From the NCBI RefSeq assembly GCF_003018255.1, contig NZ_CP027440.1: a stretch of 64,000 nt of DNA; one strand, written 5' to 3'. Shown here one piece after another: positions 8,804-11,416 of the stretch (position 1 is the stretch's first letter; each line of letters begins with the position of its first letter). Under the pieces are notes generated by a model. That model saw only the letters and a list, made by a program, of their open reading frames with translations, did no database searches and had not been told where the DNA came from. The stretch comes from Escherichia coli (GTDB lineage Bacteria > Pseudomonadota > Gammaproteobacteria > Enterobacterales > Enterobacteriaceae). Both the position numbers and the translations under genes were made by a program.

Positions 8804-10090
8804 ATGAAACTCTACAATCTGAAAGATCACAATGAGCAGGTCAGCTTTGCGCAAGCCGTAACCCAGGGGTTGGGCAAAAATCAGGGGCTGTTTTTCCCGC
8901 ACGACCTGCCGGAATTCAGCCTGACTGAAATTGATGAGATGCTGAAGCTGGATTTTGTCACCCGCAGTGCGAAGATCCTCTCGGCGTTTATTGGTGATGA
9001 AATCCCGCAGGAAATCCTGGAAGAGCGCGTACGCGCGGCGTTTGTCTTCCCGGCTCCGGTCGCCAATGTTGAAAGCGATGTCGGTTGTCTGGAATTGTTC
9101 CACGGGCCAACGCTGGCATTTAAAGATTTCGGCGGTCGCTTTATGGCACAAATGCTGACCCATATTGCGGGCGATAAGCCAGTGACCATTCTGACCGCGA
9201 CCTCCGGTGATACCGGAGCGGCAGTGGCTCATGCTTTCTACGGTTTGCCGAATGTGAAAGTGGTTATCCTCTATCCACGAGGCAAAATCAGTCCACTGCA
9301 AGAAAAACTGTTCTGTACATTGGGCGGCAATATTGAAACTGTTGCCATCGACGGCGATTTCGATGCCTGTCAGGCGCTGGTGAAGCAGGCGTTTGATGAT
9401 GAAGAACTGAAAGTGGCGCTGGGGCTAAACTCAGCTAACTCGATTAACATCAGCCGTTTGCTGGCGCAGATTTGCTACTACTTTGAAGCTGTTGCGCAGC
9501 TGCCGCAGGAGGCGCGCAACCAGCTGGTTGTCTCGGTGCCAAGCGGAAACTTCGGCGATTTGACGGCGGGTCTGCTGGCGAAGTCACTCGGTCTGCCGGT
9601 GAAACGTTTTATTGCTGCGACCAACGTGAACGATACCGTGCCACGTTTCCTGCACGACGGTCAGTGGTCACCCAAAGCGACTCAGGCGACGTTATCCAAC
9701 GCGATGGACGTGAGTCAGCCGAACAACTGGCCGCGTGTGGAAGAGTTGTTCCGCCGCAAAATCTGGCAACTGAAAGAGCTGGGTTATGCAGCCGTGGATG
9801 ATGAAACCACGCAACAGACAATGCGTGAGTTAAAAGAACTGGGCTACACTTCGGAGCCGCACGCTGCCGTAGCGTATCGTGCACTGCGTGACCAGTTGCA
9901 TCCAGGCGAATATGGCTTGTTCCTCGGCACCGCGCATCCGGCGAAATTTAAAGAGAGCGTGGAAGCGATTCTCGGTGAAACGTTGGATCTGCCAAAAGAG
10001 CTGGCAGAACGTGCCGATTTACCCTTGCTTTCACATAATCTGCCCGCCGATTTTGCTGCGTTGCGTAAATTGATGATGAATCATCAGTAA
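8804..10090 (+). CDS. thrC: Threonine synthase
   Basis: 428-aa ORF MKLYNLKDHNEQVSFAQAVTQGL...; immediately follows thrB. Confidence 0.98.
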   Translation: MKLYNLKDHNEQVSFAQAVTQGLGKNQGLFFPHDLPEFSLTEIDEMLKLDFVTRSAKILSAFIGDEIPQEILEERVRAAFVFPAPVANVESDVGCLELFHGPTLAFKDFGGRFMAQMLTHIAGDKPVTILTATSGDTGAAVAHAFYGLPNVKVVILYPRGKISPLQEKLFCTLGGNIETVAIDGDFDACQALVKQAFDDEELKVALGLNSANSINISRLLAQICYYFEAVAQLPQEARNQLVVSVPSGNFGDLTAGLLAKSLGLPVKRFIAATNVNDTVPRFLHDGQWSPKATQATLSNAMDVSQPNNWPRVEELFRRKIWQLKELGYAAVDDETTQQTMRELKELGYTSEPHAAVAYRALRDQLHPGEYGLFLGTAHPAKFKESVEAILGETLDLPKELAERADLPLLSHNLPADFAALRKLMMNHQ

Positions 10091-10110
10091 TATCTATTCA
10101 TTATCTCAAT

Positions 10111-10146
10111 CAGGCCGGGTTTGCTTTTATGCAGCCCGGCTTTTTT
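10111..10146 (+). terminator. thr operon terminator
   Basis: GC-rich hairpin (GCCGGGTTTGC...GCAGCCCGGC) followed by TTTTTT. Confidence 0.8.
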
Positions 10147-10303
10147 ATGAAGAAATTATGGAGAAAAACGACAGGGAAAAAGGAGAAATGCTCAATAAAT
10201 GCGGTAACTTAGAGATTAGGATTGCGGAGAATAACAACTGCCGTTCTCATCGCGTAATCTCCGGATATCGACCCATAACGGGCAATGATAAAAGGAGTAA
10301 CCT

Positions 10304-10600
10304 GTGAAAAAGATGCAATCTATCGTACTCGCACTTTCCCTGGTTCTGGTCGCTCCCATGGCTGCGCAGGCTGCGGAAATGACGTTAGTCCCGTCAGTAA
10401 AATTACAGATAGGCGATCGTGATAATCGTGGCTATTACTGGGATGGCGGTCACTGGCGCGACCACGGCTGGTGGAAACAACATTATGAATGGCGAGGCAA
10501 TCGCTGGCACCCATATGGACCGCCGCCATCGCCGCGCCATAACAAGCACAATGATCATCGTGGCGATCATCGTCCGGGGCCTGACAAACATCATCGCTAA
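10304..10600 (+). CDS. yaaX: Small secreted His/Trp/Arg-rich protein YaaX (DUF2502)
   Basis: 98-aa ORF with signal peptide [23 protein letters not shown], then a low-complexity H/W/R/G/D-rich mature region. Confidence 0.85.
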
Positions 10601-10607
10601 ATATCAA

Positions 10608-10627
10608 TGCCGGATTGCCATCCGGCA
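10608..10627. terminator. Palindromic hairpin between convergent yaaX and yaaA (putative bidirectional terminator)
   Basis: Perfect inverted repeat TGCCGGAT-tgcc-ATCCGGCA in a 39-bp intergenic gap; no strong U-tract. Confidence 0.4.
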
Positions 10628-10639
10628 TTGACTGCAAAC

Positions 10640-11416
10640 TTAACGCTGCTCGTAGCGTTTAAACACCAGTTCGCCGTTGCTGGAGGAAGCTTCATCAAAG
10701 AAGTAACCTTCGCTATTAAAACCAGTCAGTTGCTCTGGTTTGGTCAGCCGATTTTCAATAATGAAACGACTCATCAGACCGCGTGCTTTCTTAGCGTAGA
10801 AGCTGATGATCTTAAATTTGCCGTTCTTCTCATCGAGGAACACCGGCTTGATAATCTCGGCATTCAATTTCTTCGGCTTCACCGATTTAAAATACTCATC
10901 TGACGCCAGATTAATCACCACATTATCGCCTTGTGCTGCGAGCGCCTCGTTCAGCTTGTTGGTGATGATATCTCCCCAGAATTGATACAGATCTTTCCCT
11001 CGGGCATTCTCAAGACGGATCCCCATTTCCAGACGATAAGGCTGCATTAAATCGAGCGGGCGCAGTACGCCATACAAGCCGGAAAGCATTCGCAAATGCT
11101 GTTGGGCAAAATCGAAATCGTCTTCGCTGAAGGTTTCGGCCTGCAAGCCGGTGTAGACATCACCTTTGAATGCCAGAATCGCCTGGCGGGCATTCTCCGG
11201 CGTGAAATCTGGCTGCCAGTCATGAAAGCGAGCGGCGTTGATACCCGCCAGTTTGTCGCTGATGCGCATCAGCGTGCTAATCTGCGGAGGCGTCAGTTTC
11301 CGCGCTTCATGGATCAACTGCTGGGAATTGTCTAACAGCTCCGGCAGCGTATAGCGCGTGGTGGGCAACGGGCTTTGGTAATCGAGCGTTTTCGCAGGTG
11401 AAATAAGAATCAGCAT
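10640..11416 (-). CDS. yaaA: Peroxide stress resistance protein YaaA (DUF328)
   Basis: 258-aa [20 protein letters not shown]... Confidence 0.93.

Follow-up and report, generated by a model that had tools for sequence, protein, structure and literature searches.

Small exported proteins of the Rcs envelope-stress response

Ivy and MliC are Rcs-controlled lysozyme inhibitors, the His-rich loop of ZnuA, the N-terminus of ZinT and ZraP are His/Asp-rich metal-handling periplasmic segments, and hydrophilins and LEA-like proteins are recognised by a Gly content above 6% together with very high hydrophilicity. The fifth gene of the Escherichia coli K-12 chromosome, yaaX (b0005), is still without an assigned function, and its annotation agrees on this point with an earlier sequence-only reading of the DNA described here. 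Both yaaX and its family, DUF2502, are already known and annotated, and the locus is that of an ordinary y-gene.

In published work yaaX is listed in the RcsB regulon, being raised 1.9-fold on RcsB overproduction in K-12 (PMC2731931), it is induced by a log2 value of 4.12 after colicin M (PMC3599342), and it rises 8-12-fold with a LolCDE inhibitor, where it carries the label ‘RpoS stress induced’ (PMC5105897); across these experiments it is co-induced with colanic-acid and osmoprotection genes (PMC2731931, PMC3599342, PMC5105897). The paralog ypeC is raised 42-60-fold by the same LolCDE inhibitor (PMC5105897), falls 23.7-fold in rcsB-disrupted O157:H7 (PMC5343319) and is a MarA/SoxS target (PMC5684230). 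Similarly, in an Rcs-on mutant the promoter of the Serratia DUF2502 homolog SMDB11_2817 gains several log10 in activity, an effect that requires rcsB (PMC8470065). According to these published transcriptomes, yaaX, ypeC and the Serratia homolog belong to the Rcs envelope-stress response, a response that affects antibiotic tolerance and virulence, and yaaX and ypeC are among its more strongly induced unknowns. The sequence-only reading had suggested an interaction with the envelope; a link to the envelope gains indirect support from the induction of yaaX by RcsB overproduction, colicin M and the LolCDE inhibitor, and from the Rcs dependence of ypeC and of the Serratia homolog.

No membership of yaaX in a metal regulon was found, the sole hint being that it changes along with zraP and the cus genes in constitutive cusS mutants (PMC10920338). 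Two further papers give yaaX no more than a place in a list or a speculative remark (PMC5638813, PMC7093028); the matches to ‘YpeCntM’ (PMC9175090) and ‘YAAxxx’ (PMC2559885) are false, and a search with ‘b0005’ returned reference-anchor noise only. No data on YaaX binding, localisation or phenotype were found in the literature searched.

The yaaX locus and its conservation

The DNA analysed here, called the window, is a stretch of 64,000 nucleotides from E. coli contig NZ_CP027440.1. Its yaaX reading frame lies at 10304..10600 on the plus strand, starts with GTG and encodes 98 amino acids, its translation being identical to the protein string of the sequence-only reading. The features of the yaaX unit are listed below.

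10112..10146, plus strand: thr operon terminator, a G+C-rich hairpin (dG -20 kcal/mol, z -4.3) followed by UUUUUU; the 5' boundary of the yaaX unit
10148..10303, plus strand: conserved non-coding upstream region of yaaX (promoter and 5' UTR), purine-rich in its first 60 nt, from an alignment of 20 sequences from ~15 genera
10216..10221, plus strand: TTAGGA, candidate half-site for an Rcs-dependent activator, with conserved spacing to the -10-like element
10255..10260, plus strand: TAATCT, candidate -10 hexamer; an alignment of 22 sequences shows no variation at the T, A, C and T of TAnnCT
10292..10297, plus strand: Shine-Dalgarno sequence AAGGAG, 6 nt 5' of the GTG and kept in cross-genus alignments
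10304..10372, plus strand: signal peptide of 23 codons, read from the sequence, with predicted cleavage between AQA and AE; the pattern is kept in orthologs
10373..10507, plus strand: conserved DUF2502 core, mature residues 1-45, delimited by Pfam PF10697, pN/pS (0.16), pLDDT and invariant G, D, W and R columns
10508..10597, plus strand: His/Asp/Arg/Pro-rich tail of 30 aa with PPP at 10520-10528; pLDDT <55, composition conserved
10598..10600, plus strand: stop codon TAA
10604..10631, both strands: hairpin with a 12-bp stem between the convergent yaaX and yaaA (-19.3 kcal/mol on the plus strand, -24.4 on the minus strand, z about -5.5 on both)

RefSeq annotation gives the gene order thrA-thrB-thrC, ‘DUF2502 domain-containing protein’, yaaA, yaaJ, tal, and the K-12 counterpart of the window gene is yaaX, b0005. 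Over 610 bases around the gene, identity of the window is 100% with strain JNE23-011 and 98.4% with IAI39. The profile search for DUF2502 that had been proposed as a check returned Pfam PF10697 over residues 25-72 at 51.6 bits, above the gathering threshold of 27 (E 1.1e-13), and this match, together with the RefSeq placement of the gene between thrC and yaaA, confirms the earlier identification as YaaX; NCBIfam gave only sub-threshold matches to YaaX, all of them in the signal peptide.

The yaaX region, counted as present where at least 80% of it was covered, occurs in 5419 of 5426 complete E. coli genomes. Across 39 orthologs, pN/pS calculated from proportions of differences is 0.16 in the 45-residue core, 0.42 in the signal peptide and 0.28 in the tail, with synonymous sites of the core near saturation (pS 0.68), and purifying selection thus acts on the core. 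The sequence-only reading had named lack of expression as evidence that would count against it; transcripts of yaaX respond to stress, and a proline-related ribosome pause has been reported within the K-12 gene by two methods (PMC13410324), which means that the gene is translated. yaaX is a genuine conserved gene of the thrABC-yaaX-yaaA-yaaJ region, and we regard the identity of YaaX and its division into two modules as practically certain.

Export and composition

At the N-terminus of YaaX a KK n-region precedes a hydrophobic core of 12 residues, and positions -3/-1 carry A-x-A. The protein has neither a twin arginine nor a cysteine, and hence no lipobox of the form L-[AS]-[GA]-C; a lipoprotein was ruled out on the same ground, as there is no cysteine anywhere in the protein. 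By inspection all sequence features of a Sec/SPase I substrate are present, in agreement with the canonical signal peptide proposed earlier, and export of YaaX is predicted to be of this type.

The mature protein has 75 residues (9 kDa), of which H makes up 13.3, G 12, R 12, P 10.7, D 9.3 and W 8%, with a GRAVY of -1.94 and a pI of 9.8. It contains 10 His against 1.7 expected (P=8e-6) and 6 Trp against 1.15 expected (P=1e-3), these expectations resting on average E. coli frequencies; on this scale His and Trp stand at 5-6 times the E. coli average. The description of the mature part as His/Trp/Arg-rich therefore holds, H, W, R, G and D together accounting for 54.7% of it, and so does the mention of short repeats, given two copies of Y-x-W-x-G-x-x-W in the core and two of GATCATCGT in the tail. 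The label ‘low-complexity mini-protein’ hides two modules, a conserved core that is predicted to fold and a tail that is predicted to be disordered and conserves its composition.

The DUF2502 core

AlphaFold2, run on an 87-sequence alignment, gave a pLDDT of 83-91 at mature residues 11-50 and below 55 in the tail; the core, rich in Trp, Arg, Tyr and Gly, is thus predicted to fold and the tail to be disordered. After the signal peptide YaaX carries the DUF2502 pattern IGDRDxxGxYWDGxxWR...W, and 16 diverse members agree without exception at fourteen residues (I36, G37, D38, R39, D40, G43, W46, D47, G48, W51, R52, W57, W63 and W68). The two copies of the Y-x-W-x-G-x-x-W unit in the core, YYWDGGHW and YEWRGNRW, align with a local score of 38, matched by 0.9% of shuffles, and more distant DUF2502 relatives have two full tandem copies of RDxRGYYWDGxxWRDxxWW.

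The DUF2502 profile also matches four very large proteins through many repeats. These giant metagenomic proteins (P0209, P0218, P0224 and P0225; 422-2114 aa) consist of Ig-like repeats of the Big_13, Big_7 and Big_3_2 families. Like DUF2502, the Big_13/Big_7 repeats have the pattern V-x-[LV]-x-I-x6-7-YW[DN]G-x2-W-x4-5-W, and hhalign relates DUF2502 to the Ig-like repeats with a probability of 85.6% (E 5.6e-6) over 39 columns; the Pfam DUF2502 model passes its own threshold on P0209, and its score on one such protein, summed over the repeats, is 50.5 bits. A Big_13/Big_7 domain has about 100 residues, however, of which YaaX spans less than half, no Big_* Pfam match was obtained on YaaX or any of 87 relatives, and the predicted model of the YaaX core matched no solved structure and showed no Ig fold. 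A signal to DUF2510 is weak (E 0.11, 2 of 87 members) and involves the string YWDGxxW. We treat the likeness between DUF2502 and the Ig-like repeats as a shared hairpin motif, which may have arisen by remote homology or by convergence.

The disordered tail

The tail of YaaX keeps its composition and drifts in sequence and length. Across 39 orthologs it varies from 23 to 46 aa and aligns poorly, and its pooled composition is H 27.6, D 19.1, R 15.5, P 11.6 and G 9.2%. The tail encoded in the window has 7 His in 30 residues and holds the two copies of GATCATCGT 12 nt apart (DHRG-DHRP). The median charge of the tail across orthologs is -0.5 at pH 7.5 and +6.2 at pH 5.5.

A high density of His with Asp/Glu ligands is a mark of His-rich metal-binding proteins, and the tail has it in its His and Asp. 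Analysis of His spacing in the tails gave no positive metal-site signature, H-x-H being depleted (z -5.6) and other spacings at or below expectation. Metal binding, which the sequence-only reading had suggested for the mature protein, is plausible from composition, and would concern the His/Asp tail and not the conserved core.

The tail also contains a polyproline run, PPPSP in the window (10520-10534) and PPPPP in K-12. The run of PPP or longer that marks substrates of EF-P-dependent stalling is thus present in YaaX; it is specific to Escherichia rather than a feature of the family.

Allelic variation and the 3' end of yaaX

Compared with K-12, the first two thirds of the window yaaX have a pS of 0.039 and the tail a pS of 0.44 and a pN of 0.11, and the divergent patch covers the C-terminal tail and the 3' intergenic region (10505-10640). 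When the tail of the window plus the short intergenic region was counted at 95% identity or more, this type accounted for 1387 of the 5426 complete E. coli genomes (~26%), including Nissle 1917, UM146 and IAI39, and the remaining E. coli genomes have the K-12-type tail. E. albertii is likewise of K-12 type, and the tails of cryptic-clade Escherichia and of other genera are closer to that of the window. Such a distribution suggests that the dimorphism is old or that a patch was exchanged by recombination.

The hairpin between yaaX and yaaA could serve as a 3'-end hairpin on both strands, and has no U-run on the plus strand. In K-12 (L002 1032-1183) and the K-12-type genomes sampled, an insertion of ~112 bp lies between yaaX and yaaA that is absent from the window (10601-10640), and which we take to be REP/BIME sequence.

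The upstream region and a candidate promoter

The thr terminator hairpin is conserved in most genera, and was missed by a consensus scan because its apical region exceeds the loop limit of that scan. Over the 156 bases from the terminator to the yaaX start, majority-base identity is 0.80 across ~15 genera, far above that of the synonymous sites of yaaX. Neither this upstream region nor the paralog ypeC figures in the sequence-only reading. This conservation has no 3-nt periodicity (0.82/0.79/0.83), so the region is not coding. Nor did RNAalifold detect a conserved RNA structure in it (-3.67 kcal/mol), and Rfam returned nothing meaningful on 9800-11000. A possible pairing of CUCC with GGAG that would mask the Shine-Dalgarno sequence was rejected: covariation is all but lacking, and the local fold does not reach significance (z -1.6).

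The thrC-yaaX intergenic region contains purine-rich blocks, such as TGGAGAAAATAAGGAGAAA and CAGGGAAAAAGGAGAAATTCCCAATAAATGCGG, the distal ones at 10148-10205. An upstream frame of 49 aa at 10158..10307 on the plus strand, whose TGA overlaps the GTG of yaaX (GTGA), was considered and rejected on account of the missing periodicity and of its ATG, which is absent in other genera (ATAAGG); its length is not kept there either. A 21-codon frame (10145-10210, plus strand) starts right 3' of the thr terminator; neither its start nor its length is conserved in other genera, and it is probably not a gene.

Within the conserved region, TTA[AG]GA stands exactly 39 nt 5' of a -10-like TAnn[CA]T in 30 of 38 yaaX-type loci, and 38-39 nt 5' of the -10-like element in 30 of 41 ypeC-type loci. 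A direct comparison of the yaaX upstream sequence (10216-10260) with that of K-12 ypeC (L083 6910-6955) reveals a common TTA[AG]GA plus CGTAAT(C/A)T element. This arrangement is a candidate for an Rcs-dependent promoter layout common to yaaX and ypeC. A sigma-70 consensus scan called no plus-strand promoter upstream of yaaX, as would be expected of an activator-dependent promoter with a poor -35, and from the sequence we infer a promoter of this kind with a candidate half-site near -50.

The consensus of the RcsB box is TN(G/A)GAN4TC(T/C)NA (PMC7913699), of which TTAGGA matches only the left half (TNRGA). With up to two mismatches allowed, no RcsB box was found in 10148-10303, where 2.1 would be expected by chance. 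Since there is no canonical box upstream, Rcs control of yaaX may be indirect, or else heteromeric or non-canonical.

The DUF2502 family and the paralog YpeC

DUF2502 is a small family, found mostly in Enterobacterales. A profile search of 1.84 billion cluster representatives returned 124 proteins at E <= 0.001, and Pfam DUF2502 matches all 87 aligned relatives. Members also occur in the betaproteobacteria Jeongeupia and Deefgea (P0134, P0172). Should DUF2502 be confined to Enterobacteriaceae in its Pfam description, these two members make the family wider than described.

When one genome per species was scanned, 80 loci were obtained, which fall into two groups of paralogs, yaaX-type and ypeC-type; the yaaX-type loci always lie between thrC and yaaA. 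Like YaaX, YpeC has a signal peptide, a common core starting EITL(L/V) and a basic, His-rich, low-complexity C-terminus, and it is Rcs-dependent with the same promoter layout. Unlike YaaX, it contains a further conserved segment, HRGWDKRxAYERGYREGWxDRDD, and ends in (GH)n, and its gene (b2390 in K-12) adjoins mntH and is a target of MarA/SoxS; the YaaX tail, for its part, is His/Asp/Arg/Pro-rich and variable, with the polyproline run in Escherichia.

Gene neighbourhoods, those of distant members included, contained no recurring functional partner, yaaX simply following thrC. A DUF2502 protein with two tandem core repeats (P0174) has the same ypeC-mntH-nupC arrangement as K-12 ypeC, so the adjacency to mntH, which encodes a Mn/Fe transporter, is conserved over larger distances, in convergent orientation. 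With the genes facing each other, this adjacency may be plain synteny.

Possible functions of YaaX

The reading that we favour, though tentatively and as something short of probable, is that YaaX is a stress-induced periplasmic binder, with a core that docks on an envelope partner and a tail that chelates metals or switches with pH. Transcription of yaaX rises on envelope damage, and the protein would be exported to the periplasm, where the folded core, built on its two Y-x-W-x-G-x-x-W units, would dock on an anionic polymer or a protein of the envelope. The tail would behave as a polyampholyte with almost no net charge at pH 7.5 and a strongly positive one near pH 5.5. Its His and Asp side chains could chelate divalent transition metals, and for as long as the envelope is compromised the tail would either buffer metal ions or change its binding with pH. 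As no solved structural relative of the core was detected, any ligand proposed for it is a guess. The case against this proposal is substantial, and includes an Arg content of 15% in the tail, unusual for dedicated metal-binding His tracts, and the depletion of H-x-H together with the failure to find a link to a metal regulon.

A second possibility, with no part for metals, is that YaaX works as a ‘hydrophilin’ that binds polyanions or glycans. Its Trp/Arg core would adhere to anionic envelope polymers (colanic acid, LPS, osmoregulated glucans, peptidoglycan), and YaaX would protect or organise the envelope under osmotic, desiccation or envelope stress, the His-rich tail merely tuning charge. 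The low GRAVY, the Gly content, the high pI and the co-induction with colanic-acid and osmoprotection genes are all in keeping with such a protein, as are the pH-dependent charge of the tail and the YWDGxxW hairpin pattern that the core has in common with the Ig-like repeats. Yet that similarity is confined to 39 columns, neither YaaX nor its relatives match a glycan-binding family in Pfam, and charge tuning alone leaves the strong, conserved enrichment of His together with Asp unexplained. We consider this explanation unlikely, if worth keeping in mind.

By analogy with Ivy and MliC, YaaX might instead be a proteinaceous inhibitor or regulator that blocks a host or bacterial envelope enzyme or modulates a periplasmic sensor domain. 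YaaX is small, Rcs-induced and predicted to be periplasmic, its conserved, predicted-folded core could be a protein-binding surface, and the rapid evolution of the tail and its two old E. coli alleles could reflect an arms race; yet a tail pN/pS of 0.28 gives no sign of positive selection, YaaX has no disulfides and resembles no known inhibitor family in sequence or fold, and no conserved partner gene lies nearby. These points make an inhibitor improbable.

The frames that overlap yaaX bear on a last alternative. On the minus strand there are frames of 105, 63 and 47 aa and on the plus strand of 70 and 45 aa, and the longest, at 10320..10637 on the minus strand, exceeds yaaX itself. The sequence-only reading had called such frames spurious and put them down to the repeats. 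They are indeed present on both strands, but long open off-frames occur in 38 of 38 orthologs (medians of 86, 101 and 85 codons in three frames, range 63-139), probably because codons for His, Asp, Arg, Gly, Trp and Pro rarely create off-frame stops, and codon composition appears to explain them better than the repeats do. Antisense or dual coding was rejected, as selection on the yaaX frame (core pN/pS 0.16) and near-saturated synonymous sites (pS 0.68) exclude a conserved antisense protein. That the yaaX frame is non-functional, being a compositional artefact, a decaying gene or the reverse side of a real gene at 10320..10637, thus has next to no chance of being right, despite the low-complexity look of the region, the greater length of the antisense frame and the off-frames open in all orthologs, given that the substitution pattern of the core is incompatible with it, that the Pfam match, the signal peptide and the Shine-Dalgarno sequence all belong to the sense frame, and that yaaX is near-universal in E. 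coli with published expression and a ribosome pause.

To return to the periplasmic binder, a more far-reaching version of it can be framed for the family as a whole, although we would call it a long shot. DUF2502 would be a minimal, free-standing form of the YWDGxxW beta-hairpin that also occurs in Ig-like surface repeats and weakly in DUF2510. In Enterobacterales the two paralogs YaaX and YpeC, under a common non-canonical Rcs promoter, would serve as periplasmic polyampholytes switchable by pH or metal, binding to anionic glycans of the envelope and protecting it when it is damaged. If true, this would define a previously unrecognised class of envelope-stress effector. Knowing a function for YaaX and YpeC would close a small gap in our understanding of the way enteric bacteria deal with envelope damage, and the two-module architecture, the conserved 150-bp control region without a canonical RcsB box and the promoter layout in common with ypeC are testable leads towards it.

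Comparison with known systems

Several small, exported, Rcs-induced proteins with a protective role or none assigned (OsmB, YmgD, YmgG, Ivy, Spy, Bdm and YaiY) resemble YaaX in these respects and are co-induced with it in the same published experiments. None has a sequence relationship to YaaX, the NCBIfam match to Spy being to the signal peptide only (E 0.1, residues 1-29).

The segments of ZnuA, ZinT and ZraP are like the YaaX tail in being periplasmic, disordered and dominated by His and Asp, with composition kept over sequence. Each of them, however, is attached to a domain whose metal site is defined, and is part of the Zur or Zra regulon; YaaX lacks a domain of this sort, is rich in Arg and is under Rcs control. 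With hydrophilins and LEA-like proteins YaaX has in common its Gly content of 12%, its GRAVY of -1.94, its induction by stress and a largely disordered state, as predicted; it differs from them in being exported, in having a conserved aromatic core and in carrying no LEA motifs.
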